Assembly (NCBI GenBank): GCA_017938205.1
Contig: JAGBCA010000058.1
Location: 53,564 to 117,563 of the forward strand
Origin: Clostridia bacterium
GTDB taxonomy: Bacteria; Bacillota; Clostridia; Oscillospirales; CAG-272
Length of the DNA: 64,000 nucleotides
Direction of reading: 5' to 3'
In this document: one piece after another, positions 3,344 through 60,037 of the stretch
Numbering within the stretch: the stretch's first letter is position 1
How the letters are laid out: each line of letters begins with the position of its first letter
Notes under the pieces: generated by a model
What the model was told of the DNA's origin: nothing
The model's input: only the letters and a program-made list of their open reading frames with translations
Database searches by the model: none
Position numbers and translations under genes: made by a program

Positions 3344-3345
3344 GA

Positions 3346-12875: not shown

Positions 12876-12897
12876 AAAATAAAAATATTTTTTTATT

Positions 12898-19317: not shown

Positions 19318-20061
19318 ATGAAGGTTTTTACCTATACGGAGGATGCGCGGCTCTCCGCCGCGCGGGCGGTGCTGGAGACGCATCCGTCCATAGATACGCG
19401 CATCCACCTTCTCCCCATCCCAACGAAGAAATTTTTACCCGGAGAGCCGCTCTGCGATGCTTTTCTTACAAGGGTAATGGCGAAGGATCTCGTTTGCGGC
19501 TACGGGATCCCCGCCGCCCTTGCAGATGCGGTCGTGCGGCGCGGCGGCCGCATTTTTGAGGAAGAAGCGGATGCGGAATTTATCGAGGAAAATGCCCGGC
19601 TCACAGCCGAGGCCACGGTTGGATATCTTCTCGCAGAGCCGAAAGCCCCCTGCGACCGCACCGTTGGCATCATCGGCTACGGGCGCATCGGGCAGGCGCT
19701 CTGCCGTATGCTGCTCTTCTTCGGCGCAGGGGTGCGCATTTTCACCGAGCGCGAAAGCGTGCGCACAGCACTCGGCGAGGCGGGCATCGAGAGCCGTCCC
19801 ATACGGTACGAGGCAGGCACATCCATTGACACTAACGGTCTTGACCTCCTGATCCAAACCGCCCCCGCAAAAATTTTCATCTTGGACAACGCACCTCCCT
19901 GCCCCCTCTGGAATTTAGCCGCCGCGCCATATATCGGCGAGGGTGTGGCGGTGCGCCAGCTTTCCGCCCTGCCTGCCAGGATCTGCTACGAAAGCGGCGG
20001 CAAAGCCCTCGCACGCGCCGTTCTGCGCGCACTGCAAGACAATGAAAGGAAGACATTATGA
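19318..20061 (+). CDS. dpaA: dipicolinate synthase subunit A
   Basis: 247 aa. NAD-binding GIIGYGRIG motif. ATGA-coupled to dpaB. Confidence 0.75.
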   Translation: MKVFTYTEDARLSAARAVLETHPSIDTRIHLLPIPTKKFLPGEPLCDAFLTRVMAKDLVCGYGIPAALADAVVRRGGRIFEEEADAEFIEENARLTAEATVGYLLAEPKAPCDRTVGIIGYGRIGQALCRMLLFFGAGVRIFTERESVRTALGEAGIESRPIRYEAGTSIDTNGLDLLIQTAPAKIFILDNAPPCPLWNLAAAPYIGEGVAVRQLSALPARICYESGGKALARAVLRALQDNERKTL

Positions 20062-20618
20062 TAGGATATGCATTTTGCGGCTCTTTTTGCACGTTGCAAA
20101 AATCCATGGAGCAGCTCGCCGCCCTCGTGGCGCAGGGCATGGACGTGCAAGCGATCATGAGTGAGCACGTATACACAATGGACACGCGCTTCGGAAAAGC
20201 AGCAGACTTTCGCGCCGAGGCCGAGCGCATCACGGGCCGCCCCGTTCTCGCCTCGATCGTAGAGGCCGAGCCTCTCGGCCCGAAAACGCCCTTGGAGGCA
20301 TTGATCATCGCCCCCTGCACGGGCAACACGCTTGCGAAGATCGCAAGCGGCATCACGGACACCGCCGTGACCATGGCGGCCAAGGCGCACCTGCGGTGCG
20401 ACCGCCCCACCGTGATCGCCCTCGCCTCCAACGACTCTCTCTCCCAGAACCTGCGAAACATCGCTACTCTGCTTCTGCGTAAGCGGGTCTACCTCGTGCC
20501 CCTGAAGCAGGACGATCCGAGGAGCAAGCCCCATTCCCTCGTCGCGGACTTCTCCCGCATCCCCGAGGCCCTCACCGCCGCCTTGGAGGAGCGCCAGCTG
20601 CGCCCGCTTTTTGAATAA
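20058..20618 (+). CDS. dpaB: dipicolinate synthase subunit B (flavoprotein)
   Basis: 186 aa. MIGYAFCGSFCT start and APCTGNTLAKIA motif, typical of SpoVFB. Confidence 0.85.
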   Translation: MIGYAFCGSFCTLQKSMEQLAALVAQGMDVQAIMSEHVYTMDTRFGKAADFRAEAERITGRPVLASIVEAEPLGPKTPLEALIIAPCTGNTLAKIASGITDTAVTMAAKAHLRCDRPTVIALASNDSLSQNLRNIATLLLRKRVYLVPLKQDDPRSKPHSLVADFSRIPEALTAALEERQLRPLFE

Positions 20619-20623
20619 GACGA

Positions 20624-20668
20624 AAAAAGGCTGAATGCCCGCAAAATGCGTGGCATTCAGCTTTTTTC
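20624..20668 (+). terminator. rho-independent terminator after dpaB
   Basis: gctgaatgcc (20630-20639) pairs with ggcattcagc (20652-20661), followed by T6. Confidence 0.85.
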
Positions 20669-20677
20669 GGATTCAGC

Positions 20678-21036
20678 ACCGTCTGCGGGGCGACGAATTT
20701 TTGAGCGTATTTGTTTGAGCGCGAGCGAAAGCGTACGAGGGTACGTTGAGCGAACGATCGGACAAGATTACGGGAATTTCTATGCCCCACATCTTTTAGT
20801 ACCGTCTTCGGGGCGACGAATTTTTGAGCGTATTTGTTTGAGCGTGAGAGAAGCCGTACAAGCGTACGGAGAGGGCGCAAACGGACAAGATTGCGAAAAT
20901 TTCTATGCCCCACATCTTTTAGTACCGTCTTCGGGGCGACGAAATTTCCGATAAGGTTGTTCGCTCGCGCGCGAAGCAATACGAGGGTATTGCGAGCAAA
21001 CGAACGGACAAGATTACGGAAATTTCTATGCCCCCC
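20678..21036. repeat. three tandem copies of a ~123-bp structured mosaic repeat
   Basis: Copy A is 20678-20800 and copy B is 20801-20923, each 123 bp. Copy C (20924 to about 21036) is truncated. The arms are conserved and the central hairpin is variable with paired substitutions. Confidence 0.9.
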
Positions 21037-21870
21037 TCATCCCTTGACTGCGCCGGAGACGATCCCCTCTATTACATAGCGCTGTGCAAAAAGATAGAAA
21101 AGAAGGATCGGCAGGATGGCAAGGATCAGCATGGCCATTAGGCCTCCAAGATCTACGGCACCGAAGGCACCTTGCATCGCAAGCTCAATGGCTACGGGGA
21201 TGGTTTTCAGGCGATTGCCGAGAACGAGGTACGGAAGAAGATAGTCGTTCCAGACCCACATACCGTTGAGGATCGCAACGGTGATCGCCGTTGGCGAAAG
21301 GAGAGGGAAAACCACGCGGAAAAAGGTTTGTATCACACCGGCGCCGTCGATCTGCGCGGCCTCTTCAAGCTCGATCGGCAGCGTTTTGATGAAGGCGGTG
21401 TAGAGAAAGATCGAAAGTCCTGCTCCGAAGCCGAGATAAACGGGGATCATGCCGAGCACGCTCGAGAGGCGCACGCGGTCGATGATATAGGTGGCGGTAT
21501 ACATGATCATAGGAAAGGGCACGACCATGCTGAAAACAAACGCACCGTACAAAATACGGCTGAAGCGCCCCTCTACCCGCACGAGAAACCAGGCACACAT
21601 GGCGGCGCAAAGGACAATGACCAGAACGGAAAGCACCGTGATCACCGCAGAACGGCCGACAGCGGCAAAAAAGCCAACCGAGGAAAGCCCGCGCCGAAAG
21701 TTTTCAAATCCGACGAAGTATTCGCCGAGCGGCAGAGCGAACGGATCTGCAGATATATAAAATTTTGATTTAAATGCGTTGATCAAAACCAAGAACACGG
21801 GAAAGAGAAAAAGCAGAGAAAGGAGGATCAAAACCGCATATATGACTACATTTATTTGCTTTTTCGTCAT
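21037..21870 (-). CDS. carbohydrate ABC transporter permease
   Basis: 277 aa with 6 TM helices. EAA-like loop (ELEEAAQIDGAGVIQTFFRVVFP). Confidence 0.9.
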   Translation of the reverse strand: MTKKQINVVIYAVLILLSLLFLFPVFLVLINAFKSKFYISADPFALPLGEYFVGFENFRRGLSSVGFFAAVGRSAVITVLSVLVIVLCAAMCAWFLVRVEGRFSRILYGAFVFSMVVPFPMIMYTATYIIDRVRLSSVLGMIPVYLGFGAGLSIFLYTAFIKTLPIELEEAAQIDGAGVIQTFFRVVFPLLSPTAITVAILNGMWVWNDYLLPYLVLGNRLKTIPVAIELAMQGAFGAVDLGGLMAMLILAILPILLFYLFAQRYVIEGIVSGAVKG

Positions 21871-32363: not shown

Positions 32364-32380
32364 TTTTTACAACCTCCATA

Positions 32381-32439: not shown

Positions 32440-32454
32440 TGGAAGAAGAATAAT

Positions 32455-32910: not shown

Positions 32911-33040
32911 AGTATATAAATTCATTTACCTAAAGAATCCCCCCTTCTTTCCATGATTTTCAAATTGCGGTCATACGCATAAAAGCACCGCCGATCCGAA
33001 AAAATAAAAGTGAGATCCTTTTTGGAAAGGAGGATAAAAA

Positions 33041-33235: not shown

Positions 33236-33271
33236 GGGCTGTCACCTTAATAATTCAATAACCCGGCATAT

Positions 33272-33312
33272 TAAAAAGTGGAGATGCGTTTTTTCATCTC
33301 CACTTGTCTTTT
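33272..33312. terminator. bidirectional terminator
   Basis: agtggagatg (33277-33286) pairs with catctccact (33295-33304). An A-run and a T-run flank the stem. Confidence 0.8.
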
Positions 33313-33347
33313 ATACTTTGTAGCCTCACATGAAGCGGTCTCTTTCT

Positions 33348-35111: not shown

Positions 35112-35191
35112 AGGCTTCTCCAAAGACTTACATATTTTTTTGAAAATCGGAAAAACTAAGAGCGGAATAAAACGCCCGAAAGGAATCCGAT

Positions 35192-35389
35192 ATGTTGTTT
35201 GCAAAAAGAGAAAGAAAAAGACGGCATCCCTTATTTGCCCTGACCGTGACGGCCTTAGCCGCCGTCGGACTGTGCGGACTATTCTCCGCTTCTAAGAATA
35301 TGATAACGGAAAAATGCGAAAAAATCAAGTATTTTTTCTGTAAAAAAAAGAAAAATAATGCCTGCACCTGCGCAGAAGATCAAAACTGA
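35192..35389 (+). CDS. possible small membrane protein
   Basis: 65 aa. Basic N-terminus followed by one hydrophobic helix. Weak RBS. Its own terminator lies at 35396-35418. Confidence 0.35.
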   Translation: MLFAKRERKRRHPLFALTVTALAAVGLCGLFSASKNMITEKCEKIKYFFCKKKKNNACTCAEDQN

Positions 35390-35433
35390 GAAAAAGGCGC
35401 AAAGGATTTGCGTTTTTCCCGACAAAGCAGATA

Positions 35434-35482
35434 AGAAAAACCACTTGCCTCCAAAGAAATGGAACAAGTGGTTTCTTTTTTT
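35434..35482. terminator. bidirectional terminator after the trigger-factor-like gene
   Basis: aaaccacttg (35438-35447) pairs with caagtggttt (35465-35474). An A-run and a T-run flank the stem. Confidence 0.7.
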
Positions 35483-35487
35483 AGCGC

Positions 35488-37176: not shown

Positions 37177-37187
37177 ATTCTCCCCTC

Positions 37188-37625
37188 TCAAAGAAACGAA
37201 TCGGCATAAGCGGTTGCCAAGCGGTCACACCGCTCGTTGTATGCATGGCCGTCATGCCCCTTGACCCAAAAGAAATGCACGGTGTGCTTTTCGCAGAGCG
37301 CGATCAGCCGCTCCCAAAGATCGGGGTTTTTCACCTCGTCCCGCTTGCCGCGGCGGAAATTCTCTCTCTGCCACCCCTTCACCCAACCGAGCAAAAAGGC
37401 ATCCACGAGATATTTGGAATCCGAATACAGATCCACCTCGCAACTCTCCTTCAAGGCCGAAAGCCCCTCAATGGCCGCCAAAAGCTCCATGCGATTGTTC
37501 GTTGTCATCGGGTCGCCGCCGGAGAGCTCACGCTCGTATTTTCCGTAAACCAAAACGGCGCCCCAGCCGCCGCGGCCGGGATTGCCGCGGCAGGCCCCGT
37601 CTGTATAAAGCTGTACTTTTTTCAA
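37188..37625 (-). CDS. rnhA: ribonuclease HI
   Basis: 145 aa with a TTG start. [21 protein letters not shown] and [14 protein letters not shown] motifs. Confidence 0.9.
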
Positions 37626-37679
37626 AATGCTGTCTTCCTTTTTTTAAAGGGTGATAGAAGTGCGCACGCGCCTCCTATG

Positions 37680-37717
37680 TGAAGAGAAAAGGACTACCCT
37701 GTGAGAGAAGTCCTTTT
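37680..37717 (-). terminator. rho-independent terminator after the 617-aa lipoprotein gene
   Basis: aaaaggact (37687-37695) pairs with agtcctttt (37709-37717). A T-rich tail follows on the minus strand. Confidence 0.6.
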
Positions 37718-37761
37718 CTGATACTCGTATTGTTCTGCGCAGAGTGCGCAGGGTGCAGAGA

Positions 37762-39615
37762 TCAATCTGCGTATTTAACGGTGATATTGGTGTACTTCAC
37801 GTGACCGTCAACCTCTTCGGTTGCAAGGAAATAATCCATGATACGGTCGAAGGTGAGGGAGCAACGGATCGCGGTCTCACCGTAGTAATCAAGAACGTCG
37901 TTCACCGTGGGATTGTAGTTACCCTGGAGATAGAAGGTGTAGTAAAGCGAGGGATAGATCTCGTCGATATAGATCGAGATGTCTGCCTTGGTAACCTTCT
38001 TCACCTGATCCTCATACTGCTGAGCAACGGCGTATACGCGGATGATCTCAACGACCTCTGCCTTTGCCTCTGCCTCAACGGAAGCATCCACGTCCTCGTC
38101 CTTATAAGCAACGGCGGCAAGATACTCGCTGAAGGTCTTGTAGGTCTCGGCGTATGCCACATTGGTGGTGGAATCCTGACCGGTGTAGTAATCGTTCTTA
38201 TGAACTGCGAGAATACGTTCCCTTGCCTCCTTTACGGCACGCTTGGGAAGATTTGCCTCATCAACCTTCACGTTCTTCTCAACCCACTCCCAGATTGCCT
38301 TACCAAGCTGGGTTCTTACGGTTGCATCGTGCGAGGTCTCAAGCGTTTCGTATACGGACGCCTTGTATTCGTCCACGATCAGCTTCTTAACGTCTGCCTC
38401 GGTGCCGGTAGCGTAAAGCTTACCGGGAAGAGCCTTAACGGCATCCTCGAGCTTTGTCTTAGCCTGGTCTCTGGTGTTCTTCTGTTCCTCGGTTGCGGAG
38501 GAGCCTGCGCTCGTTACCTTGGAGTTTGCCTGATCGTACTTGCTCTTGAGATCAACCACGTCCTTAATGAGCTCCTCCATCTTCTCGTTCTCCGTGAAAA
38601 TATCCAGAGAGGAGGTGGAAATGCTCTCGCCGAAGATGGTCTTAATAACCGAATCGGCGTTAAATTCCTCAACCTCGTATGCGTATGCGGGATAAACGTA
38701 ATAGGTAACAACGGTATCCTTCGTGAATTTAACCTCGCCTGCGGTGTCTGCAACGCTGGCAATGGTCTTATCGGCCGTCAGGGTATCCTTCACCTCAACG
38801 CACTTGCCGCTCTTGATTCTAAAATGAACGGTCATGCTGGCAACGGAGCACTCACCCTTTACGGCATCGGTGAACTTCAAAGGATTCTCGGTGGTTCCCT
38901 CAATCTTACCGATGCTCTTGCCTGCAAGAAGCTGCTCGATCTTCGTTGCCACTGCGCCCTCTGCGGGTGCCTCGGCTACCGTGATCAGCATATAATCGGT
39001 GCTTGCAGACTTGTTGGTGCCGTCCTCGCTATAGGTATACTTATAGGAAACGAACACCTGATCGCCTGCGGCAAGCGTGCCGGTGGACTCGGAATCGTAC
39101 GCATAGTCGGTTGCCTTCAAGCCCTTGATGGCGTCAAAGATCTTCTGCGTCAGCTCGCTGTCCAGCGCAAGCTTCCCGTCCTCGCTCGCCTTACCGTTCG
39201 TATAGGTGGGGTTGGAGAGGAAATTCGTAAGCTTCGTATCGTCCATATTCTTCGTATCGAAGAGGTAGGTCACGCCATCCTTCTCGGCGGCGCAATAGAA
39301 CGCATAGTAGATCTTCTGGCGAAGACCGTATACGGCATCGCCCTTCAGCTTTGCGGCGGTGGTGGTATCGATCTTACCTGCCAGGGTGCTATCGATCTTC
39401 TCAAGCACCTGATCGTCTCTCACGGTGCTGTCTTTCAGGTAGGGACCGAAATCGTCGCCCTCTACTGTGATGCTCTTCAAGAGAGCCGTAAGGCCCGCAT
39501 AATCCGCCTTTGCATACTTGGACATATCCTTGTTGTCATAGCGGTAGGCACAGCCCGTCAGCACCGTTACGAGCGTAACGAGCACGAGCGCCAGAGCAAG
39601 AATTTTCTTTTTCAT
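37762..39615 (-). CDS. lipoprotein, degenerate trigger-factor-like paralogue
   Basis: 617 aa. Signal peptide with lipobox LTGC. The C-terminal region is alignable by eye with the 562-aa TF-like protein. The IPGFE motif is missing. Confidence 0.6.
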   Translation of the reverse strand: MKKKILALALVLVTLVTVLTGCAYRYDNKDMSKYAKADYAGLTALLKSITVEGDDFGPYLKDSTVRDDQVLEKIDSTLAGKIDTTTAAKLKGDAVYGLRQKIYYAFYCAAEKDGVTYLFDTKNMDDTKLTNFLSNPTYTNGKASEDGKLALDSELTQKIFDAIKGLKATDYAYDSESTGTLAAGDQVFVSYKYTYSEDGTNKSASTDYMLITVAEAPAEGAVATKIEQLLAGKSIGKIEGTTENPLKFTDAVKGECSVASMTVHFRIKSGKCVEVKDTLTADKTIASVADTAGEVKFTKDTVVTYYVYPAYAYEVEEFNADSVIKTIFGESISTSSLDIFTENEKMEELIKDVVDLKSKYDQANSKVTSAGSSATEEQKNTRDQAKTKLEDAVKALPGKLYATGTEADVKKLIVDEYKASVYETLETSHDATVRTQLGKAIWEWVEKNVKVDEANLPKRAVKEARERILAVHKNDYYTGQDSTTNVAYAETYKTFSEYLAAVAYKDEDVDASVEAEAKAEVVEIIRVYAVAQQYEDQVKKVTKADISIYIDEIYPSLYYTFYLQGNYNPTVNDVLDYYGETAIRCSLTFDRIMDYFLATEEVDGHVKYTNITVKYAD

Positions 39616-39685
39616 CTGTCAAAATCCTCTTTGTTTTAGTATAAACTGCGAGAGCCGTGCGGCTCTTCCTTCGCGTATCGTGAAT

Positions 39686-39694
39686 ATTATAGCA
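39686..39694 (-). promoter_or_regulatory. extended -10 element upstream of the lipoprotein gene
   Basis: TGCTATAAT on the minus strand, about 70 nt upstream of ATG 39615. Confidence 0.45.
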
Positions 39695-39754
39695 CAATCC
39701 GCTTAAAAAAGCAACTGCTTTTGCTTACTTTTTTTAAATTAAATATTATTTATT

Positions 39755-42715
39755 TCAGTTTCCGTTCGCGGGATCGAAAAACGCCTCGTCTCCCGTTACC
39801 TTACGGGCATTCAGGATCGCATCAAAGGCACCCATGATCTTCTTGAAGGTTGGGGTGGCGATCGCAAAATCCGATACGGCCTCGCTTGCGTTGCCAAGAC
39901 CGTCCACGGTTTGGATCTTAACGAGCACGCGGCGGTCAGACGCACGGTAAAACTCATAGGTCGCGCTTGCAACGTGCGCATCGTACTCGCTCTCGTTCAT
40001 CACGAAGCGGATGCGCGCCAGCATGGGCGCGTTTGCCAGAATATCGGCCTGCTCCTCTGCCGTAAAGGTTTCGAGATACAGGGTGGAGGATACGATAAGC
40101 ATCGCCTGCTTGAAGAAATGCGTGCCTGCGTATTCATTATCCACAACGCTGACGTTACCGCGCAAAAGATCCTCGGGACCGCAGTGGTTATAGAAGGAGA
40201 CCAAGCTCTGCAGAAGCTCGCCGTCCGGCACTCTGCCGTTCTCTATCATGAACTGAACGAGGCGGTTCTCGTATGCATCCGCACCCGGACGAACGATCAT
40301 GCGGATCAGCTTCTCGTATTTGCCGGTCAGGTCGTTGAGCACCTCCTCGGGATCCAGGATAAAGTCAAATCTACCCTGCATTTTTTCAAAGTTGAACTCA
40401 ACCTGAACCTCGGAAAGCTCCTCGATGTCCGTAATAAAGAGCTGATTTCTTGCCCAGAAATCCACGAAGCCGAATTCCACGAAATCAAGCTTTTCATCCT
40501 CCACGCGAACGATCACGTCGTAAAGATCGGAGGCAATATAACGAACGTAGCGTCCGTCCTCCAGCCGCTTATCGCTGATATACACGGTGAAGCCCAGAGA
40601 AGTCTGCCAGTTGAATTCGGTCGGCGCATTCTCATCCTCGGACGTCTCACCGCTGCTACTACGGACACGGGGAAGCTCGTAATAGATCGTATGGGCGTAA
40701 AGGCCGTACCGGCGCATATTTTCGGGCGTAAGACCGATGGCGACCGTTTCATCCCCCGCATATCCGTTGGATGCCGTGCTGCTGGTGCCCGCGCCGCCAA
40801 GGTGCAGAAGCACGTTTTCACAAGCGGGATTGTTCAGTCCGTATCCGCCGTGCTTGCCCTCGGTGAGATTGACGTAAATGCTCTCGCCGTAGAAGGGATC
40901 GCGCTCGGCATACTTCTGGAATGCAAAATGCACGATCTCCTCACGCACGATCATATAGGGGATCGCGGTGATCGTATAGGAGATATAGTCCTGCATGATG
41001 TCGAGATAATCCACGTACGAGCCGATCTTCTGATTGTAGCCGTTTCCGACCTTGCCGAGAGCGAGGAAGAGCGCCTTGTTTGCCTCATCCATATTCGCGA
41101 TCTTATCCGCCGCGCTCAGATAGGTCTCTTGCTTCACGCCGTTGATCTCAAGATAGTAACGGTAGGAAACAACGGAGTCCTCCGTGATGGTGGTCATGCT
41201 TCTTCCGTCCGCATCGTAGATCGCAATGATATCCGCAACGTAGACGTCGATCTTTTTCTTATGAATGTCCGAGATCGTTGCAATATCGTGGGTTATATTC
41301 AAAGAAATGTTTACATTTTCGTTAATCGTTGCCGCGCGGAGCGTGCTTTCATACGCCGCAATACGATCGTCCGTAAGAGAGAGAGCCGCATGAAGAGAGC
41401 TTGTATTTACTGCTTTTTCCGAGCCGTCAATATAGAGATCGTACTCCACGATCAGCGCCGTTGCATCCGCAGGCACGGAGCCCGAGCGCTCCTCCCCGTC
41501 TGCCGTCAGAGCCGCGGTGATCTTCTTGATCTTATACGTGTAAGTCATCGAGGTCTTGCCCTCGGGGAAGGAGAGAGAAAGCCCCTCGTTCAGCAACGTG
41601 ACGTACAAATGATCGGTAAGCGAAGGCATCTGCTCCTCACCCGCACCGTCTACAACGATGCCGGTCAGCTTCTGCTTAAGCAGCAGGCGAACCAAGCGCT
41701 CGTACGCCGCCTTTTTCGAAAGCTCGCCGAGATGGAAGGAGGTGCTCTCCGTGCTTTCGAGCAGGCCGCCCGTGATGTGATCCTTGGGCAGGGAGATCTC
41801 CGCCTTAACGATAACCTCTGCATCCGCATCGATGGCCGTATCCTTCTCGGATACAAGCTCGTTGCGCCACTGGTGATAATCCTTGATCATATAAGGCTCA
41901 TACACGCCATCCATCTCAAGACCCGCAGAGATCACGGCAGGATTGATATAGTATGTGTACGGCTGCGTTGCATAGCCGATGTTGCTGTTGTTGGTGGCAT
42001 AGATATAATTCTGCGCCTCGGGATGATTGGGATCGTCGATCATCACGTAATATCCGTTTTCGGAGGGATTTCTGCCGCCGACACGGATCGCGCGATAATC
42101 CACTTCCTCGCCCGTGGTGCTATCGTTTTTTCCGTAATTTACGATCACACTAAGATCCTTGTTATCGTCAGGATCATCGTAGTCGCCGTAATCCATGAAG
42201 CCGAATTCCTCAAGATATGCGCGCACCTCGTTTTCCGAGAGCCCCTTCAGGCTGATACGCTCGGTGAAGTACATCGTTGTGATGGCGGAGCGCAGATAGA
42301 AGAAGCGCGCCACCTGCCCCTGGCCGAAGGAATCCATGGCATAGAGCGAGGAATAGGTGAAGGAGGGATCTGCCGAAACGATGTCCGGCATATAGAAGAG
42401 AGGCTCCTCGCTGCCCTTGGGCAGATACCAGATCGAGAAGGTGCCGTCCTCGGTTTTTACAAGACCAAAGGTCTCGTTCTCGCTCCCCTTGGGGTTGTTT
42501 ACCGTGATATACTGCACGGCCTTGGTGTCAACGTCGGGGAATACGCGCTGACTCGTGCCCTCCCAGGCAAGCTGATCGTAGGTCGGTGCTTCGGGCGTTT
42601 CCGTGCCCTCCGGCAAAAGAGATACGAGAATGAAATATCCCGCGATCAGCACCGCCATCACGGCGGTGAGAATGATAAGGAGCTTTGCTTTGCTTTTCTT
42701 TTTAACGTGAATCAT
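39755..42715 (-). CDS. large DUF4340-like membrane-anchored protein
   Basis: 986 aa with one N-terminal TM helix. Last gene of the ABC-2/GldG-type operon, the position usually held by DUF4340 proteins. Confidence 0.6.
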   Translation of the reverse strand: MIHVKKKSKAKLLIILTAVMAVLIAGYFILVSLLPEGTETPEAPTYDQLAWEGTSQRVFPDVDTKAVQYITVNNPKGSENETFGLVKTEDGTFSIWYLPKGSEEPLFYMPDIVSADPSFTYSSLYAMDSFGQGQVARFFYLRSAITTMYFTERISLKGLSENEVRAYLEEFGFMDYGDYDDPDDNKDLSVIVNYGKNDSTTGEEVDYRAIRVGGRNPSENGYYVMIDDPNHPEAQNYIYATNNSNIGYATQPYTYYINPAVISAGLEMDGVYEPYMIKDYHQWRNELVSEKDTAIDADAEVIVKAEISLPKDHITGGLLESTESTSFHLGELSKKAAYERLVRLLLKQKLTGIVVDGAGEEQMPSLTDHLYVTLLNEGLSLSFPEGKTSMTYTYKIKKITAALTADGEERSGSVPADATALIVEYDLYIDGSEKAVNTSSLHAALSLTDDRIAAYESTLRAATINENVNISLNITHDIATISDIHKKKIDVYVADIIAIYDADGRSMTTITEDSVVSYRYYLEINGVKQETYLSAADKIANMDEANKALFLALGKVGNGYNQKIGSYVDYLDIMQDYISYTITAIPYMIVREEIVHFAFQKYAERDPFYGESIYVNLTEGKHGGYGLNNPACENVLLHLGGAGTSSTASNGYAGDETVAIGLTPENMRRYGLYAHTIYYELPRVRSSSGETSEDENAPTEFNWQTSLGFTVYISDKRLEDGRYVRYIASDLYDVIVRVEDEKLDFVEFGFVDFWARNQLFITDIEELSEVQVEFNFEKMQGRFDFILDPEEVLNDLTGKYEKLIRMIVRPGADAYENRLVQFMIENGRVPDGELLQSLVSFYNHCGPEDLLRGNVSVVDNEYAGTHFFKQAMLIVSSTLYLETFTAEEQADILANAPMLARIRFVMNESEYDAHVASATYEFYRASDRRVLVKIQTVDGLGNASEAVSDFAIATPTFKKIMGAFDAILNARKVTGDEAFFDPANGN

Positions 42716-42730
42716 CGTCGGCTCCTTTCT

Positions 42731-44404
42731 TTAGCGGAATCTGCGGCGCAGATGGATCACAAGTCCCGTGATGGCTACGCCGAGGGGGATCAGGACAGCA
42801 ATAAGAATGATCGCGGTCTGCGCACCTGCAGTCAGCGGCTGATTGGTTTTGATCACGCTTCCGTCGTTTGCATAGATCTCGGTCGTAGCCGTAGCGACCG
42901 CCGCGCTGTGAAGGCGCTTACCGCCGTAGGAGGCGGAGTTCAGAGACGAGCCGCCAAGATCAATCGAGGCGTATACGTCCTCGCGGGAGATATTCTCCAC
43001 CAGCGCACTCGTGATATCGTAGTTTGCAAAGGATGCGTTTCCGAGCGTTTGCTCCGAGAAGAAGCTTGCGCTGTTCACGCAGAAGACATAGGAATAGCTA
43101 TGCGCAAGCGTGGTGCTGTCCACACCGTAGCGAAGCGCTACGCCGCAAATATCGCGCACCGCAGCCTCGGATGCCGCATTTCCCTCTCCGTCCAAAAGCT
43201 TTCCCTTATCGGTGGTGGAGAAGAAGGTGGAGTAATAGCGGGAGAACTTGATGCTGCCCGCCTCGGGCGCACCGGTTCCGAGATCGTATGCGCTGCGGAT
43301 CTCGCCCGCATCGCTGATCACCATACGCGGTGAGGAGGCAAGGGACGCGTACGCACCGTAGATCGCGTATGCGTAGGTATTCTCCTCCGTGATATACTGA
43401 CCGATAAGATCGGTTTTTTTGTTCGGATCGACGGCGCTTGAAAGATGCGCATCCTCGTCCGCAAGAACCTTATCTCCAAGCTCAAAGCCCCACTCATAAA
43501 GGAAATCCTCAAGGTTTTTAAGCTTGTTTTCGGCAACCAGACGGTAATCCGTTGCCACCATCAGAGAGCCCTGATCTCTCGTGAGATAGCGGTCTAACTT
43601 TTCGGTCTCGCTTTGGTAGGTATACGAGCCTGCCTGCGAGGGATCGTATGCATAATCCGCTCTCGGGTTATTGATCACGAGCAGAGCGCAATCCTCCGGC
43701 ACATCCTCCACGGCGGAGAGGTCCAGCGTTTTCACAACGAGACCGCGCTCCGTGAGAAGCCGATAGAGCGACTCTGTATCGGCATTGCCGGGGTGATCCT
43801 TATTTTCCGTATCGAAATAAAGCTCACCGTGATTGGTAATAAAGTACGCCACGGGGTGATTCTTCGAGGTGAGCGAATGGAAGAGCGTTGCCATCTTATA
43901 TTCTCCGTTGTAGGAGAAAAGATTTTCCTCGCCGTCCGTGGTCCAGAAGGCATCCACCGATGCAATGCGGAAGGAATTGCCGTACGAGATAATGATGTCG
44001 GTGGCGTAGATCTCGGAGAGGGAGGTCGTTTTATACGCATTCACCGCCGTGGGGTTGGTTTTCAGATTGACGCACTTGACGGCAAGGTTGGGATAGAGCT
44101 TCTGCAGAGCGAGGCACATAAAGTACACCGTTCTTGCCTTGGCATTCGCGCGAAGCTGATCCGGCTCGGCGCAGAAGGTCACCGTGATCTCTTTCTCCAG
44201 ATCATCGATATACTCGCACTCCTCCACCATCTTGTCCGTCAGGGTATATAAGCCCTCGCTGGTAAGATCGATATACAGCTGCTTTCTTTCCGAAAAGCCC
44301 GTGAACCAGACCTGGAACAAAAGCAACGCCGCGAGAGCAATGGGGATAAGCAGAGAAAGCAAGCGTCGCTTGCCGAGCTTACCCGCAAACAATTCTTTTT
44401 TCAT
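42731..44404 (-). CDS. GldG-like ABC transporter auxiliary protein (paralogue 2)
   Basis: 557 aa with N- and C-terminal TM anchors. ABC_transp_aux-like pattern (YIDLTSEGLYTLTD). Confidence 0.7.
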   Translation of the reverse strand: MKKELFAGKLGKRRLLSLLIPIALAALLLFQVWFTGFSERKQLYIDLTSEGLYTLTDKMVEECEYIDDLEKEITVTFCAEPDQLRANAKARTVYFMCLALQKLYPNLAVKCVNLKTNPTAVNAYKTTSLSEIYATDIIISYGNSFRIASVDAFWTTDGEENLFSYNGEYKMATLFHSLTSKNHPVAYFITNHGELYFDTENKDHPGNADTESLYRLLTERGLVVKTLDLSAVEDVPEDCALLVINNPRADYAYDPSQAGSYTYQSETEKLDRYLTRDQGSLMVATDYRLVAENKLKNLEDFLYEWGFELGDKVLADEDAHLSSAVDPNKKTDLIGQYITEENTYAYAIYGAYASLASSPRMVISDAGEIRSAYDLGTGAPEAGSIKFSRYYSTFFSTTDKGKLLDGEGNAASEAAVRDICGVALRYGVDSTTLAHSYSYVFCVNSASFFSEQTLGNASFANYDITSALVENISREDVYASIDLGGSSLNSASYGGKRLHSAAVATATTEIYANDGSVIKTNQPLTAGAQTAIILIAVLIPLGVAITGLVIHLRRRFR

Positions 44405-44422
44405 CTTGGGAAGAATCCTTTC

Positions 44423-45940
44423 TTAGCGATTCCTGCGGCGGCGAAGGAATACGAAGCCGCAGACTGCGAGGGCCGTGGGGATCAGGAAGATAACGGCCGT
44501 ATAAATGTGTGCCGCACGCGCAGTGAGGTTTTCCAGCATATCCGTCATAAGATTGACCATATGGCAGCCGTACGGAAGATTTTCACCCTCGTACAGAGCC
44601 TCGATCAAGCCGTACATAAACGCGCGGTTGGAATAGGTGTTGGAGGTCATGACGTCCGTTGCGGTCAGATATACGCTCGGAATGAGCACGATATCGCCGC
44701 CGCCCTGCACCTCGCTCATCGCGGCAAGAACGTAATCACCTTCACGGTCCACGGTTTTGCCGTCCGCAAGAAGCGTGGAGGAAGATGAGGAAAGAAGCAG
44801 AGGCTTTGCTCTGCCCGAAAGCTTCAGCGCAGCCGTATCCGTCAGCGCTACGCCGCCGTGATCGGGAAGGCGCGTCTTAAGAACGTCCGCCACCGCACTG
44901 TCGGCATATTTCGCAACGAGCGTATATGCATCCGTGGGAATAGAGGCGGCACCGTCCTTTACAATGGCGGTAACGCCCTCGTCGCGGATCACGGAAAGTC
45001 CGTGTGATGCAAAAAATTCGTCAAGATTTTTCAGAGGATTTTTCAGATAGGAATGCGTAGTGGCGAGAATATGGCCGCCGTCCTCCACGTAGGCGGAAAG
45101 GCGCTCGATCTCGGTGATAACGTCGCTTCCCGGTGCCGCCTTCTCAAAATCCGTTTGCGGTGAAGAAATGATAAGAAGCGCACAGTCCTCGGGAACGTCG
45201 CGATCCTTGAGATTCAGAAGCTGAATATCATACCCCGCACAAACGAGAAGCGGGATCATCGAGCTATCCGGCGTTTCGCCGTGATACTGCGTAAAGTACG
45301 CCATCTTCCTCGTTTGATCTGCATCGGCAACGAGAATGCTCATAGCGGTGAGCATCTCCTCGCCGCAGTACGCAAGGGCACTGCCGGTGGCAGCATCCAG
45401 CGCAAAGAAGGAGGCAAAGCCACTGCTCGTGTTATCGGTCAGAACGCGGTAATTCATCTTTCCCGCGATCGTTTTATAGGAGAATACCACCGAGCTGTCC
45501 CTCAAAACCTCGCCCTCGGCGAGCGTCTTTTTGTATTCCTCGATCTGCGCGGAGCGATTCTGCCCCTTGGAATCCCTTTTCGTGAGGATATTCATATATT
45601 CGATGGAGATCACTTCCGGATATTTTTCGGCGATCTGCTTGGCGGTATGGAGCACGAAGGCACCCGTATCGTGCACCTCAAGCTCCTCCTCTGCCATGCA
45701 GAAAAGAATTTCCACCTTGCGCTCTTCCCTTTTCATTTTTTCATACAGAGGCGTCACGGCATCCGAAAGCTCCATATCACTCATATCCGTCGAGTAGAAA
45801 TAGAGACCGAAATGGGCCGTCAGGGCATACGCAATGCCGTTGAAGGCAATGAGTATGGCAAGAAGCACCACCGTCATTACCGAGGAAAAGCGCCCGTCGG
45901 CAACGAAGACGTCCTTCGCCTTTTTCAAAAATTTATTCAT
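44423..45940 (-). CDS. GldG-like ABC transporter auxiliary protein (paralogue 1)
   Basis: 505 aa with N- and C-terminal TM anchors. Same architecture as its neighbour. Confidence 0.65.
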   Translation of the reverse strand: MNKFLKKAKDVFVADGRFSSVMTVVLLAILIAFNGIAYALTAHFGLYFYSTDMSDMELSDAVTPLYEKMKREERKVEILFCMAEEELEVHDTGAFVLHTAKQIAEKYPEVISIEYMNILTKRDSKGQNRSAQIEEYKKTLAEGEVLRDSSVVFSYKTIAGKMNYRVLTDNTSSGFASFFALDAATGSALAYCGEEMLTAMSILVADADQTRKMAYFTQYHGETPDSSMIPLLVCAGYDIQLLNLKDRDVPEDCALLIISSPQTDFEKAAPGSDVITEIERLSAYVEDGGHILATTHSYLKNPLKNLDEFFASHGLSVIRDEGVTAIVKDGAASIPTDAYTLVAKYADSAVADVLKTRLPDHGGVALTDTAALKLSGRAKPLLLSSSSSTLLADGKTVDREGDYVLAAMSEVQGGGDIVLIPSVYLTATDVMTSNTYSNRAFMYGLIEALYEGENLPYGCHMVNLMTDMLENLTARAAHIYTAVIFLIPTALAVCGFVFLRRRRNR

Positions 45941-45958
45941 GCGTACGTGCCTCGCTTT

Positions 45959-46669
45959 TTAACCGTGATAGCGGCGGCGCTCATACACGCGCACCGTGAA
46001 ATAAAGGAAGGCCGCACATACCGACAGATAATAAAGCAAAGAGGCAAAATCAAAATATCCGTTGGTATAGCTCTGGAAACGGGAAAAGATCGAAATACAG
46101 TCAAAAATATAACGCAGCCAATAGCCCGAGGGAAGCAGCGAATTTACAAGACCGATGCAAAGGAACACAAGAATGATCGCGATCGTGCCTATAGCGGCGG
46201 CCAGCTGATTCTCCGTCAGCGACGAAACGAAAAGACCGATCGAAATAAACACCATGCCGACGAGAAGCACCGCCAGCAGGTTTCCAAGCAGGATCGCCAG
46301 CTTAACGAAGGCGTACGGCGTTAAGAAAATGAAATACAAGGAATTGACGAGGATCGCGCCGCTAAACACCGTCATCACCGCAAAGAACTTGCCGAGCACC
46401 ATGCTCCAAAGCGGAACGGGCGCGGTGAGAAGCAAGGCCTCCGTGCGGATCTTTCTCTCCTCCGAAAAGGACTTCATCGTCAGGATCGGAAGGATCAGCC
46501 CCGAAAAGATCATCATGTAAAGATAAAAGCTCGTCACGTCTGCGGACATAGCGTACAGCGTGGTGAAGCAGAAAACAGCGCCGCCAACGGCGAGATACAG
46601 AACCAGAAATACGTAACCGATCACGCTCGTGAAGAAAGAGCGCATTTCTCTTTTATAAATTGCAAGCAT
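45959..46669 (-). CDS. ABC-2 type transporter permease (GldF-like)
   Basis: 236 aa with 6 TM helices. MLAIYKREMRSFFTS start is typical of the ABC-2 family. Confidence 0.8.
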   Translation of the reverse strand: MLAIYKREMRSFFTSVIGYVFLVLYLAVGGAVFCFTTLYAMSADVTSFYLYMMIFSGLILPILTMKSFSEERKIRTEALLLTAPVPLWSMVLGKFFAVMTVFSGAILVNSLYFIFLTPYAFVKLAILLGNLLAVLLVGMVFISIGLFVSSLTENQLAAAIGTIAIILVFLCIGLVNSLLPSGYWLRYIFDCISIFSRFQSYTNGYFDFASLLYYLSVCAAFLYFTVRVYERRRYHG

Positions 46670-46686
46670 TTTATTTCTCCTCCCGA

Positions 46687-47646
46687 TTATTTGCGTGCAC
46701 CGTCGGCGCTCGCATCGGACTTTTCAACCAAACGAATGAAGATGGACTCGAGATCCGTGCCCGTGGGTGCGAGCTCCATCAAGGGATAATTCTTTTCCGC
46801 GAGCAAGCGGAACAAGGGCTTGCGGATATCTATGCCGCGCGCGCCCTCAAGAAGGAATGCAGAGGCATCTCCCTCCTTCTCGCCCGTTGCCGTCACGCTC
46901 TTCATGCCCTGCATTCCGCGCAGCGCCGAAAGCACCTCGCGCTCAGGGCCTGCGATCTTGGCACGGTAGATCACCGTATCCTCCAGTGTGCGGGCAAGCT
47001 CGTCCGTTTTCTTATCCGCAATCAGACGGCCGCGATTGATGATCAGAACGCGCTTGCAGACCGACTGCACCTCGGCAAGAATATGCGTGGAAAGGATCAC
47101 CGTATGGCTCTTGGCGAGCGAGCGGATCAGATTTCTCACCTCAAGGATCTGCTTGGGGTCAAGGCCGACCGTCGGCTCATCAAAGATCACGACCTTGGGA
47201 TCGCCGATCAGCGCCTGGGCAATGCCAACGCGCTGCTTATAGCCCTTGGAAAGGTTGCGGATCAGGCGTTTTCTCACCTCACCGAGCTTCACGACGCCCA
47301 TGATCTCCTCAAGATGCGCCTCTCTTTCCAGCGCGCAGCCCTTCAGCTCGTACACGAAGCCGAGATACTCCTCCACCGTCATATCGGGGTAAAGCGGCGG
47401 CTGCTCCGGAAGATAGCCGATCATGCGCTTTGCCGCAATGGGATCCTCCTTGATATTAACACCGCCGATCTCCACCTCACCGGAGGATGCGGCCAGAAAT
47501 CCCGTCAGAATATTCATCGTGGTACTTTTTCCCGCACCGTTCGGACCGAGCAGGCCGACGACCTCGCCCTCCTCGATTTCAAACGAAACGTCATTCAACG
47601 CATAGTTCGCGCCGTAGCGCTTCACCAAATTTTCAACCTTTATCAT
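46687..47646 (-). CDS. ABC transporter ATP-binding protein (GldA-like)
   Basis: 319 aa from ATG 47646. Walker A GPNGAGKST, signature LSKGYKQRV, Walker B VVIFDEP. Confidence 0.9.
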   Translation of the reverse strand: MIKVENLVKRYGANYALNDVSFEIEEGEVVGLLGPNGAGKSTTMNILTGFLAASSGEVEIGGVNIKEDPIAAKRMIGYLPEQPPLYPDMTVEEYLGFVYELKGCALEREAHLEEIMGVVKLGEVRKRLIRNLSKGYKQRVGIAQALIGDPKVVIFDEPTVGLDPKQILEVRNLIRSLAKSHTVILSTHILAEVQSVCKRVLIINRGRLIADKKTDELARTLEDTVIYRAKIAGPEREVLSALRGMQGMKSVTATGEKEGDASAFLLEGARGIDIRKPLFRLLAEKNYPLMELAPTGTDLESIFIRLVEKSDASADGARK

Positions 47647-47707
47647 AATATCCAAGACCTCAACGAGGCCCTCCTTTCCATCTCTCGGTGTGATAGTACA
47701 CTCGGAA

Positions 47708-47716
47708 ATTATAACA
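47708..47716 (-). promoter_or_regulatory. extended -10 element upstream of the ABC-2/GldG operon
   Basis: TGTTATAAT on the minus strand, about 60 nt upstream of ATG 47646. Confidence 0.45.
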
Positions 47717-47767
47717 TATAAATATAAACATATTATTAACAAAACGCGCATCTTTATAAAATAATGT

Positions 47768-47810
47768 AAAAATAAAGGTGTCATAAATGCGATTTTGCAT
47801 TTATGACACC
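47768..47810 (-). terminator. rho-independent terminator overlapping the end of the Toprim gene
   Basis: Perfect 14-bp stem: ggtgtcataaatgc (47777-47790) pairs with gcatttatgacacc (47797-47810). A T-rich tail follows on the minus strand. Confidence 0.8.
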
Positions 47811-48403
47811 GTAATATCGGGAAAAAGCGAACGCACACACGCAAAAAATTCTTCGCGGGACAAAAGAAGGTTCACGGCGGCAAGCAGCGGCGTTGCCCCC
47901 ATGCCCGAGGGCAGAGAAAGCGCGTTTGCCAGCGCATCGCGGCGCAGGGTGGCGTTTTCCGCACCCGTCAGACCGCAAACGAAGAAATCCGTTTTGGTGA
48001 TCGGATCCCCCTTTTTTTCCTGTACGCCGCCCGAAAGCGGCAGAAAAAGCTCGTAGAGCAGATCTGCCTCCATACCCTCCACGCCGAGCGTGCCACTTTT
48101 CGAGGGGGCGGACTTGCGCCGCTCCTTGCCGCGGATCTCGGGAATATACAAGGGATGAATGCTCTCCTTCGGCAAAATGGAGGAGAGAAAGGCGCGGATC
48201 TGCCGACCGCCGCCGTCCGAATCCGTCAGCACGATGGCGCCGTCCTTGCAAAGGCGGCGCAAAAGCGCCTGCTTTTCCTTGGAATTGAAGATCGCAAAGC
48301 CTCCCGTCGTCAGGATCGTGGCGTCCAGGATCTGCGAAAGCGTGTTTTTATCGTATTTCCCCTCCACGATCACGGGCAAGGGGATGCGAAGCTTTTTTCG
48401 CAT
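47801..48403 (-). CDS. Toprim-domain protein (DUF4093 / RNase M5-like)
   Basis: 200 aa. VIVEGKYDK and LTDSDGGG acidic Toprim motifs. Its RBS lies inside the end of nth. Confidence 0.65.
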   Translation of the reverse strand: MRKKLRIPLPVIVEGKYDKNTLSQILDATILTTGGFAIFNSKEKQALLRRLCKDGAIVLTDSDGGGRQIRAFLSSILPKESIHPLYIPEIRGKERRKSAPSKSGTLGVEGMEADLLYELFLPLSGGVQEKKGDPITKTDFFVCGLTGAENATLRRDALANALSLPSGMGATPLLAAVNLLLSREEFFACVRSLFPDITVS

Positions 48404-54971: not shown

Positions 54972-55118
54972 TATAAAAAATTCGCCGCACAGAAAATATC
55001 CGTGTGGCGATTTCTTATAGCATCTTCCTACGACGGCATTATCCGTATCAGGTTATAAGGGTTTGGACCGTTCCATCTCAGCCTTTCGGCACCCCTGATA
55101 TTATTCTGTTTTCAGCGT
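54972..55118 (-). promoter_or_regulatory. TPP (THI-box) riboswitch with terminator expression platform
   Basis: The minus strand reads ...caggggtgccgaaaggctgagatggaac...acctgatacggataatgccgtcg.... A hairpin follows (54982-55010), then a T6 run. Confidence 0.9.
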
Positions 55119-57881: not shown

Positions 57882-58574
57882 TCACATTTTTTCTAAAACG
57901 CCGAGAAGCTCTGAAAGCTCTCGGATCTCTGCGGTGGGCACAAGCTCTGCGCTTGCCTGCTTTCCGTGCGGATTGAACCAAACGCTCCTGATCCCCGAAA
58001 CGATACCACCCTTGATATCCGAGGTCAAGCTGTCGCCAACGATCACGGCCTCCTCGCGCTTAAAATCGGGGATCCTTGCAAAGCAGGCCTCAAAATATGC
58101 AAGCGAGGGCTTGTTGTGCCCTACCTCCTCGGAAACGAAGCGCTCCTTGAAGTATTTTCCGATCCCTGCGGAGGCAACGCGCCCTGCCTGCACGGCAGCA
58201 ATGCCGTTGGTGGCAAGATAGAGCGTATATTTCGGATAGAGTGCCTCAAGCAGCGCCTCTGCGCCGGGAAGAAAATAATGCCCCTCGGCAAGATGCCCCT
58301 CATATACCGCAGGTGCGCGCGTAGCATCCGCCCGACCGGAAATGCCGAGCGCGTCAAAAAACTTTTTAAACCGCATAGCGCGAAGCTCCGTGCGCGTGAT
58401 CTCCGCACGCTCCAATGCTTCCCAGCAGCTTTTGTTGATCTTACTGTAAAGCGCTTTGTTTTCCTCCGTTACCGGAATGGAAAACTCACGCAGCGTTTTC
58501 TCGATTGCCACGTCCTCCGCCTTATGAAAATCCAGGATCGTGTCATCCAGATCCAAAAATACGTGTTTGATCAT
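57882..58574 (-). CDS. HAD-IA family hydrolase (YjjG-like nucleotidase)
   Basis: 230 aa from ATG 58574. Motif I FLDLDDT and motif IV VGDS. The ORF-track N-terminal extension is a translation of the repeat element. Confidence 0.8.
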   Translation of the reverse strand: MIKHVFLDLDDTILDFHKAEDVAIEKTLREFSIPVTEENKALYSKINKSCWEALERAEITRTELRAMRFKKFFDALGISGRADATRAPAVYEGHLAEGHYFLPGAEALLEALYPKYTLYLATNGIAAVQAGRVASAGIGKYFKERFVSEEVGHNKPSLAYFEACFARIPDFKREEAVIVGDSLTSDIKGGIVSGIRSVWFNPHGKQASAELVPTAEIRELSELLGVLEKM

Positions 58575-58656
58575 AGAGTTACCTTTCTTTACAAGAAGCG
58601 GAGGCCGACGCAGATGCTTCTGCAGCAGCCTCCCAGTTTTATATAACTTCACAAGT

Positions 58657-58768
58657 ACCGTCTGCGCGCGCAGAAAATTTCGGATGATAAGGTTTGATTT
58701 TCGCAGAAGGCGTACGAGGGTACGTCGATGCAAAAATCGGGCCTTTGCGCCGAAATTTTCCAGCCGCA
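58657..58768. repeat. dispersed fourth copy of the structured mosaic repeat
   Basis: Same layout as copy C at 20924-21036. Outer stem gaaaatttcgg (58673-58683) pairs with ccgaaattttc (58750-58760). Apical ggcgtac-GAGG-gtacgtc hairpin. Confidence 0.8.
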
Positions 58769-59923
58769 CTATACGTCAGCTTCTCGGTTTTCGAGGGCAG
58801 CCAACGCCACGCGGAAGGCCTTCGCCGCCGTCATACGTGCTTCCTCATCCTCGGATTTGAGGAGCGGAAGGAGCTTGCGGTATACCTCGCCTGCGGCGTT
58901 CATATCTCTTGCAAAATGCTCTGCTCCGTAGAGAGGCATGGTTTTATCCACCAGATCGAAATAATAAAGACCGAAGGCATCACATTCAAGATTTTTCGGA
59001 ACGAGGAAGCGCGGCGCGATCTCACCAACGAGCTGAACGCGCAACGCGGTCTCCATACCGTATTTTTTATCGCTGATCACCTTGGTGATGCGGTTGATGA
59101 TCTCGTTGCCGGTGTCCACGCCTGTAATATCGATCGTTTCGGTAACAAAGCGAAGGCGGCCGAAGGAAAGCTTCTTAACGTCAATGGAAAGCTCACCGTC
59201 GTTATAATCCACCACGATCAGGTTTGCGCCGCCGATGCCCGTATTTTCAAAGCCCGTGCATTCCAGCGAGCCGCAGTAGCTATAGATCACGGAGTCGCCG
59301 ATCTTCATAAAGTCGCTCGCCTCGTGGCGCGAGCCGAGCGCATAGTAATCCGCACCGAACTTCTTCAGCTCATTTTCGGAGAGGGGGCATTGATCGGATT
59401 CAATGCTGCCGCCGAGATCGCCGTAGCCGCAAACGAGGTTAATACGGGAGGAATCGTCCACCTCTTTCTCGTAGAGCGGGCTTTCCGTCATCGTTTCGTT
59501 CATGAAGGCCCAGCCGTACACGGTAACGTTAAACTGCTCAAAATCGAAGCGGGAAAGCGTGTCCTTTGAGAAAACGTACACGTTGGAGGGCAAGCGGCCG
59601 GAGGTGTAGATCGGGTTGTTTTCATAGTAATCGGAGCGACCGGGGGAAATGATAAACACGGTCTCCGAGCAATTGCGGAACTCACGGATCAGAACCTCGG
59701 CGGTGGTATTGGTGGCATAGCGGTTATCAAAAAGATCGCCGCTGATCAGCACCACGTTTACGCCGCGATCGCGAACGTATTGCATCATGCGCATAAAGGA
59801 GGAGCGCAGCTCTCTGCGTCTCTCATCACATTTTTCAGCCGTCAAGCCCACCGTGGGCGTATCCAGATGAATATCCGAGCAATGCAGAAATCTCAAGTGC
59901 GTATTTTTGCTGTTTTCGCTCAT
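58769..59923 (-). CDS. SbcD/YhaO-like metallophosphoesterase (DNA repair exonuclease family)
   Basis: 384 aa from ATG 59923. Calcineurin-like phosphoesterase motifs HCSDIHLD and SGDLFDN. Confidence 0.8.
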   Translation of the reverse strand: MSENSKNTHLRFLHCSDIHLDTPTVGLTAEKCDERRRELRSSFMRMMQYVRDRGVNVVLISGDLFDNRYATNTTAEVLIREFRNCSETVFIISPGRSDYYENNPIYTSGRLPSNVYVFSKDTLSRFDFEQFNVTVYGWAFMNETMTESPLYEKEVDDSSRINLVCGYGDLGGSIESDQCPLSENELKKFGADYYALGSRHEASDFMKIGDSVIYSYCGSLECTGFENTGIGGANLIVVDYNDGELSIDVKKLSFGRLRFVTETIDITGVDTGNEIINRITKVISDKKYGMETALRVQLVGEIAPRFLVPKNLECDAFGLYYFDLVDKTMPLYGAEHFARDMNAAGEVYRKLLPLLKSEDEEARMTAAKAFRVALAALENREADV

Positions 59924-60037
59924 TCGTTCTCCCATCCTTTTCTTCCGTGCAAGCCGGAATTTTCTATCTTTCCATTATAGTATAGCATTTCTCTTTTCCT
60001 TTTGCAATAATTTTAGCAAAAAAACTTGCAAAATGTC

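Follow-up and report, generated by a model that had tools for sequence, protein, structure and literature searches.

Identification of the repeat

What occupies the space between an SbcD-like gene and a HAD-family hydrolase gene in a 64-kb stretch of Clostridia DNA (hereafter the window, meaning all of the DNA that was analysed), and what would keep its structure? The host lineage is known only from gut and rumen metagenomes, and its nearest named homologues, at about 60% amino-acid identity, come from Acutalibacteraceae and Oscillospiraceae. The original prediction placed between the two genes a dispersed copy of a hairpin repeat that also forms a tandem array elsewhere in the window. We call this copy D, and R1 below is a covariance model made from six copies. 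The locus has the following features.

58654..58771, plus strand (orientation as modelled; flanking genes and mRNA lie on the minus strand): hairpin repeat, copy D; R1 score 109.7 bits, fold z = -6.3
58654..58665, plus strand: single-stranded 5' tail of D, AGTACCGTCTGC; highest conservation in 35 distinct units, consensus aCCGTCTgCG
58663..58768, plus strand: long imperfect hairpin of D, about 37 pairs, apical loop GAGG at 58716-58719; based on folds, covariation and D-versus-C pairs
58769..59935, minus strand: SbcD-like metallophosphoesterase gene (PF00149, homologues at 93% identity); its TAG at 58769-58771 abuts the hairpin base
58600..58633, minus strand: terminator-like hairpin followed by GCUUCUUGU, between D and the HAD start; the region folds at -27.5 kcal/mol, z = -3.1
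57882..58574, minus strand: HAD-family hydrolase gene, start ATG 58574-58572; orthologues of 226-230 aa

The sequence at 58654-58771 contains the parts that had been predicted, namely the leader ACCGTCTGCG, the outer stem GAAAATTTCGG/CCGAAATTTTC, the middle stem GATTTTCGC/GCAAAAATC and the apical stem GGCGTAC/GTACGTC, closed by the GAGG loop. Copy D starts at 58654, with AGT ahead of ACCGTCT, and its end touches the TAG stop. Read on the mRNA strand, the tail is a 3' tail, GCAGACGGTACT, and it was unpaired in every fold that we computed. The nearest relative of the SbcD-like protein in the protein collection is 93% identical, and the window protein itself has no exact match there.

The statement that the element fills the gap was inexact. 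Because the HAD gene starts with the ATG at 58574-58572, positions 58575-58653 hold a separate terminator-like hairpin and a ribosome-binding site; since that start is at 58574 and not at 58769, copy D takes only the SbcD-proximal half of the 195-nt gap. Clear U-tract terminators are found at the corresponding place in two relatives (L119 and L123; loci of relatives carry L numbers). The suspicion that the called ORF through this region has a spurious N-terminus was well founded: judged from its orthologues, which are 226-230 aa long and begin MIKHVFLDL, the predicted 295-aa ORF 57882..58769 is the HAD gene with an artefactual N-terminal extension.

The other copies of the repeat are three tandem 123-bp units at 20675-21039, detected with TRF, between a permease gene and a flavoprotein-family gene.

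20675..20797, plus strand: array unit A, R1 110.4 bits
20798..20920, plus strand: array unit B, loop AAGC, R1 106.5 bits
20921..21039, plus strand: array unit C, R1 121.1 bits; abuts or overlaps the permease TGA stop at 21037-21039
21037..21870, minus strand: carbohydrate ABC transporter permease gene (PF00528), upstream of the array in the mRNA sense
20058..20618, plus strand: flavoprotein-family gene (PF02441), convergent with the permease gene; we read it as dipicolinate synthase subunit B (dpaB)
20621..20669, no strand assigned: bidirectional intrinsic terminator (A-tract, hairpin, T-tract) between the dpaB stop and the array; z = -7.4 on the plus and -5.8 on the minus strand

In the alignments copy D is in register with units A, B and C, and its identity to them is only 58-60%. 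Each of the four copies is one long imperfect hairpin of about 105 nt, preceded on the plus strand by the unpaired tail AGTACCGTCT. R1 found exactly four copies in the 64-kb window, with scores of 106-121 bits, D having an E value of about 6e-23; the pattern of leader, stems and loop gave 4 matches where 0.00 were expected. Chance resemblance had been named as a possible objection, and by these scores the similarity of D to the array units is beyond chance, which makes D a dispersed copy of the array unit as predicted.

Opposite strands of the known copies aside, the next-best R1 match in the window reached 24 bits, at 31566-31651. We rejected it as a family member, as it is a different hairpin. 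It is bracketed by two 67-bp copies (94-97% identical, each with a terminator-like hairpin) which belong to a 275-bp direct duplication at 31443-31783, and it is also present in L136 at 272-357.

Folding of both strands, as had been suggested, gave -55.3 kcal/mol for D on the plus strand (z = -6.3, with 0 of 200 shuffles as good) and -46.4 kcal/mol on the minus strand (z = -4.4). Unit C folded at -50.6 kcal/mol (z = -4.65). As DNA, both strands fold about equally well.

Pairing and covariation

The original prediction was that the stems of the copies differ in sequence while their pairing is kept. We compared D with C, which is independent of model fitting: of 39 pairs, 19 are the same in both copies, 5 have lost their pairing, 3 carry a change on one side, and 12 have both bases replaced and still pair. 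The two-sided changes are located in the outer, middle and apical stems, so that every stem differs as stated. Copy D retains 37 of 38 pairs at 58% identity, in a single-copy locus.

For a wider comparison, 35 distinct units from relatives were aligned to R1. In this set 81% of the cells were paired, against at most 47% when the partners were slid. Two-sided changes were seen at 19 of the 39 pairs, against 11.1 +/- 2 in shuffles and at most 8 with slid partners, and the covariation score was 0.232 against 0.120 in the control; the 35-unit alignment was fitted to the model, which favours structure, and the margin is still large. Compared at this level, the units maintain their pairing through compensatory substitutions, in line with the pattern that had been described. 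The best-formed units are those that adjoin the gene stop, and the inner units of the arrays are degenerate, with 23-27 of 39 Watson-Crick pairs.

Conservation is highest in the unpaired tail ACCGTCTKCG, in ACGAAATTT and in the internal GAGCGAAG. The GAGG loop, which had been noted as common to C and D, is typical of the window's group, but species differ in it, the L138-L147 group having ATGG; within the window, unit B has AAGC. Since the loop differs between the groups, its sequence is not the conserved feature. A CsrA-type GGA/GAGG loop was considered and rejected, given the ATGG of the sister species group.

A palindrome could also be restored free of selection, by intrastrand template switching (quasipalindrome correction) together with gene conversion between tandem units, and the element would then be a neutral minisatellite. 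Its tandem arrays, variable copy number and higher-order period, described below, agree with this, and many of the two-sided D/C changes are transversions to perfect complements (e.g. CG/GC, AT/TA). Against it, pairs 33-97, 37-93, 42-88 and 57-74 form stepwise CG-UG-UA series whose frequent G-U intermediates are found on one strand only, and pair 43-87 is kept as U-G in 26 of the 35 units. Moreover, the best-conserved segment is a tail that is unpaired and outside the palindrome, and D has held its pairs at a locus where it is the single copy. We regard this neutral origin as quite improbable.

Occurrence in relatives

Orthologous loci were reached via homologues of the genes that flank the element. 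At the SbcD-like/HAD site the relatives differ as follows, where percentages are the identity of the SbcD-like protein to that of the window.

L133-L135: one copy identical to D; protein in the same 90%-identity cluster as the L119 protein P0002
L123 (90%): two full copies and one truncated copy in tandem, directly after TAA
L119-L122 (92%): empty
L124 and L125 (89%): empty
L126-L132 (71-80%): no copy in about 100 kb

Sites with the element and sites without it encode an SbcD-like C-terminus of equal length. The truncated third copy of L123, at 11417-11495, keeps the outer and middle arms, and its apical stem and tail are deleted. In L124 a hairpin of another kind, about 60 nt long (GCGCAAAAATTC...GAAATTTGCGC, CGAGGG at its centre), is located at 8341-8400, directly after the SbcD-like stop, which is the position of D; it is unmatched by R1, the L125 gap is likewise 169 nt, and the hairpin may be an unrelated structure or a decayed relative.

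At the permease/dpaB site the element was found in every relative (L008 and L136-L147), in 1, 2, 3 (the window), 4, 6 or about 7 units. Among contigs that share one permease protein (P0181), the gap measures 381-383, 628 or 873 bp, in steps of about 245 bp, and this agrees with the two-unit higher-order period of 245 bp that TRF detected in L138 and with the alternation of unit types in L008. These copy numbers come from short-read metagenome assemblies, with an N gap inside the array of L144 and with L145-L147 ending within it, and therefore some of the differences could be assembly artefacts. As the assemblies stand, the array is a tandem array at one locus with a unit count that differs between them, and close relatives differ by gain, loss or copy-number change of the element.

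In L144 the array (5929-6182) coincides with a 100-N scaffold gap, and contigs with the permease gene are in many cases no longer than 1-4 kb; the repeat seems to interrupt short-read assembly. L008 has two alternating unit types at 243-1062, one of which is without the ACCGTCT tail and has AAACCTCGGGCAACG, in a higher-order repeat of about 234 bp. Another kind of repeat is present in L138, where a cluster at 17100-17290 consists of short GTGATATG repeats and then inverted ATATCAC repeats, spaced by about 20 nt. This cluster is inside an insertion of about 350 bp between the aconitase and hpf genes, which is absent from L139, L144 and the window (the gap there is about 92-148 bp).

The unit boundaries at the permease/dpaB site bear on how the array arose. 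The GATG of the permease gene end recurs at the unit starts in the window; in the L138 group the first unit starts with TGAGTGGGGC and the internal units with CGAGTGGGGC, and the homology reaches into the stop-codon region. The duplicated unit therefore includes a few bases of the gene end, which points to local tandem duplication and not to serial insertion. The permease frame stays open for 154 codons past its stop, through the whole array (20572-21036, minus strand), and this gives rise to a spurious 135-aa ORF; in L136-L144 it is open for 29-76 codons.

No third locus was found in the 64-kb window and about 6 kb of additional territory from the genus (about 70 kb of unique DNA). With two loci only, the description of a dispersed mobile element rests on one inter-locus event.

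Database searches and signs of mobility

In Rfam no family came near its gathering threshold for the element, which matched only weak and unrelated microRNA and lncRNA models at 11-22 bits. Elsewhere in the window, a TPP riboswitch (RF00059, 77.4 bits) is located at 55008-55106 on the minus strand, upstream of a YuaJ-type thiamine transporter and near a thiamine pyrophosphokinase gene.

A loose pattern (17 specified bases, 40-60 nt gap) run on genome contigs returned 118 loci, which R1 showed to be chance matches with the exception of L008. Two stricter patterns had no match in a metagenome contig collection, which is incomplete, as the second of them matches the JGI-derived L141 and L143. This second pattern had no match in viral contigs, blastn had none against plasmids and phages, and a chimeric protein made of all the open frames of the units, used as a query for spurious array ORFs elsewhere, also had none.

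The Pfam scan detected no transposase or integrase, including PF01797 (RAYT), among the window ORFs at 942-14163 and 31819-47844, and there was likewise none among the called genes of L119-L147. Four long ORFs at 37744-45940 in the window (631, 1140, 212 and 505 aa) matched no Pfam family at E <= 1e-5, and may either encode uncharacterised proteins or be ORFs on the wrong strand. No target-site duplication is definable, because filled and empty sites (window, L123 and L119) do not align in their intergenic DNA. A MITE has terminal inverted repeats and a target-site duplication, with a related autonomous IS. The outer stem of the element can serve as inverted ends, and no IS was found in the DNA examined.

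Transcription and strand asymmetry

On the mRNA strand the order is the same at both loci and in all relatives: the stop codon, the hairpin base 0-2 nt further on, the tail ...GCAGACGGTRCT and a separate intrinsic terminator. Because the base is 0-2 nt from the stop and the terminator lies downstream, the element must be transcribed on the minus strand with the SbcD-like or permease gene. It resides in 3' UTRs, upstream of the gene's own intrinsic terminator. The element does not itself look like an intrinsic terminator, as no U-tract directly follows the hairpin on the mRNA strand. Stop-codon readthrough or recoding of a SECIS-like kind was also rejected, since the stop is UGA, UAG or UAA depending on the site and the downstream frame is unconserved.

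The structural bias goes in the other direction. The plus strand is the better RNA fold in 27 of the 35 units (mean -41.0 vs -36.7 kcal/mol), and its well-supported pairs include 65 G-U cells against 27 A-C cells; pair 43-87 is a U-G pair in 26 units. The G-U wobbles and the invariant single-stranded tail are thus on the strand antisense to the host mRNAs. This asymmetry is only suggestive, because the units are related by descent. As such, it counts against simple selection on mRNA structure and is compatible with recognition of one DNA strand, or with an antisense RNA, for which no promoter was seen. The GC skew gave too weak a signal to infer the replication strand.

The main rival to the reading that we favour below is a cis-acting RNA role in the 3' UTR, where the hairpin would stabilise the upstream message against 3' exonucleases, be a processing site, or interfere with termination or ribosome release. 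Work by Liang, Rudd and Deutscher from 2015 reportedly found that E. coli REP sequences near stop codons have the last of these effects. Such a role would fit the uniform orientation relative to the upstream gene, the obligatory transcription between stop and terminator, the covariation and the minus strand of D, which still folds strongly. It does not account for the wobble asymmetry and the better fold of the opposite strand, and the site is empty in equally close relatives whose protein C-terminus is unchanged. The inner array units are degenerate, and the mRNAs already have terminator hairpins of their own. We consider a cis-acting RNA role rather unlikely. Against our own reading, the conserved U-G pair 43-87 and the invariant tail could also suit a specific function as an RNA or in binding a protein.

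The same asymmetry could come from a small or antisense RNA transcribed independently from the plus strand, with the 5' tail as its seed and the long hairpin as its body. The better fold and the wobble pairs of this strand agree with that, as does a conserved single-stranded 5' segment like that of an sRNA seed. No promoter-like site was found ahead of any unit examined; each unit adjoins another unit or the dpaB terminator at a spacing of only 4-9 nt, C and D are not followed by a U-tract terminator, and Rfam had no matching family. An sRNA of this kind is extremely unlikely.

Comparison with known repeat systems

A REPIN consists of two REPs in inverted orientation, one in each arm; a REP is a short imperfect palindrome whose head is a conserved GT[AG]G. 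The cognate RAYT is a Y1 transposase (PF01797). The element resembles REPINs in being an extragenic hairpin (about 70-110 nt in REPINs) with ends more conserved than the middle, compensatory changes and tandem clusters that include flanking DNA, and we found in it the long hairpin, conserved ends, variable spacer and compensatory changes by which REPIN hairpins are recognised. The intermediate proposed for REPINs is a single-stranded hairpin with a 5' tail, a further likeness. In the 35-unit consensus, however, a REP is absent from the arms, which contain neither a short autonomous palindrome nor the GT[AG]G head. No inverted partner of the 5' tail ACCGTCTKCG is present at the 3' end, and only the tails of A and B form a weak 5-bp mini-hairpin. 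REPINs have tens to hundreds of loci, whereas the element has two in the about 70 kb examined; no RAYT was found in the DNA examined, the host belongs to the Clostridia and not to Pseudomonas or Enterobacteria, and the element has an exact position beside stop codons. We find no support for membership in REP/REPIN, even though long hairpins, common compensatory changes, flank-including tandem clusters and a hairpin-plus-5'-tail intermediate are all described for REPINs (PMC3116915).

The bcr1 repeat of the Bacillus cereus group also has compensatory changes and an unconserved distribution (PMC3184786). Like the element, it is an intergenic repeat of Firmicutes (about 150 bp), uneven among close strains and cotranscribed with its neighbours, with a folded structure that is kept. 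By description, and not by sequence, bcr1 differs in its many copies and in the 5-bp direct repeats at its flanks, of which none are definable for the element, and it is not known for tandem arrays. Pneumococcal BOX (boxA-boxB(n)-boxC) shares the intergenic hairpins, an internal tandem module, a strain-variable copy number and the absence of a known mobilising enzyme, but in BOX only the 45-bp boxB repeats inside a modular element, whereas here the whole 123-bp hairpin unit does; BOX has more than 100 copies per genome.

MIRU-VNTRs are intergenic tandem repeats of operons (tens of bases) that touch the upstream stop and vary in copy number between strains, and their unit length is a multiple of three, as are the 123 and 126 of the element. 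MIRUs differ from the element in that their defining trait is a conserved small in-frame ORF, overlapping the flanking stop and start codons and translationally coupled, and not a hairpin; here the frame past the stop is not of that kind (open for 154 codons in the window, 29-76 in L136-L144). In an integron, an attC site is an imperfect palindrome that follows a cassette ORF and has RYYYAAC and GTTRRRY cores at its two ends, and an integrase is encoded in the vicinity. This identity was rejected, as the ends on the gene strand are GTGSGGC... and ...GACGGTRCT and no integrase was present among the scanned ORFs.

A last comparison is with the E. coli BIMEs, which bind gyrase, IHF and Pol I, and with the bias of REPs to convergent intergenic regions (PMC3184786). 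By analogy, the element could be a double-stranded or cruciform DNA site for a chromosome protein where convergent or tandem transcription ends. One of its loci is between convergent genes, and the invariant blocks ACCGTCT, ACGAAATTT and GAGCGAAG could be read in this way. No sign of a binding protein was seen, 39 co-varying pairs would be needless for such a site, and the element is dispensable in close relatives, so that we find this role very improbable.

Proposed mechanism and significance

We therefore file the element as a new family within a known kind, the bacterial intergenic hairpin repeats, because of its compensatory hairpin, its conserved ends and tail, its variable presence, its flank-including tandem clusters and its residence in 3' UTRs. 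This is the best reading of the class, with REPIN, bcr1 or BOX as the nearest in kind. On balance, and with some reserve, we favour a lineage-restricted, low-copy family of hairpin repeats of about 115-123 bp for which persistence at the DNA level with tandem amplification is the best-supported mechanism.

Under this mechanism slippage, or unequal recombination between units, would lengthen and shorten the arrays, and their growth would seem to go in two-unit steps. Rarely, the element might move between loci at the DNA level via a single strand with the hairpin and tail, the geometry proposed for REPIN intermediates. Persistence would depend on this single-stranded form or on a protein that recognises it, and the hairpin would be kept for that reason. 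As part of the mRNA the element would be a passenger; at most, its stable 3' structure could hinder 3' exonucleases or interfere with termination at the neighbouring stop.

A more novel outcome would be a single-strand-specific replicator or recognition site of a kind undescribed in Firmicutes, or a new 3'-UTR element coupled to translation termination, and we consider either to be unlikely. The invariant 5' tail, the conserved U-G pairs and a hairpin that holds at 58% identity point to selection on the strand antisense to all host mRNAs. Were the single-strand replicator or recognition site true, an ssDNA-binding enzyme of a so far unknown identity, HUH-type or other, would have to act on the first bases that follow stops.

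For genome annotation, the repeat explains why a 295-aa ORF was called and why spurious ORFs run across the array, and it likewise explains the assembly breaks and collapse at the permease/dpaB locus in this lineage. The array is a candidate VNTR for strain typing. With this family, an uncultured gut and rumen lineage of Clostridia joins a class of hairpin repeats known mostly from Proteobacteria, bacilli and streptococci. Only two features of the family could lead somewhere new, its exact placement after the stop and the uneven distribution of wobble pairs between the strands.
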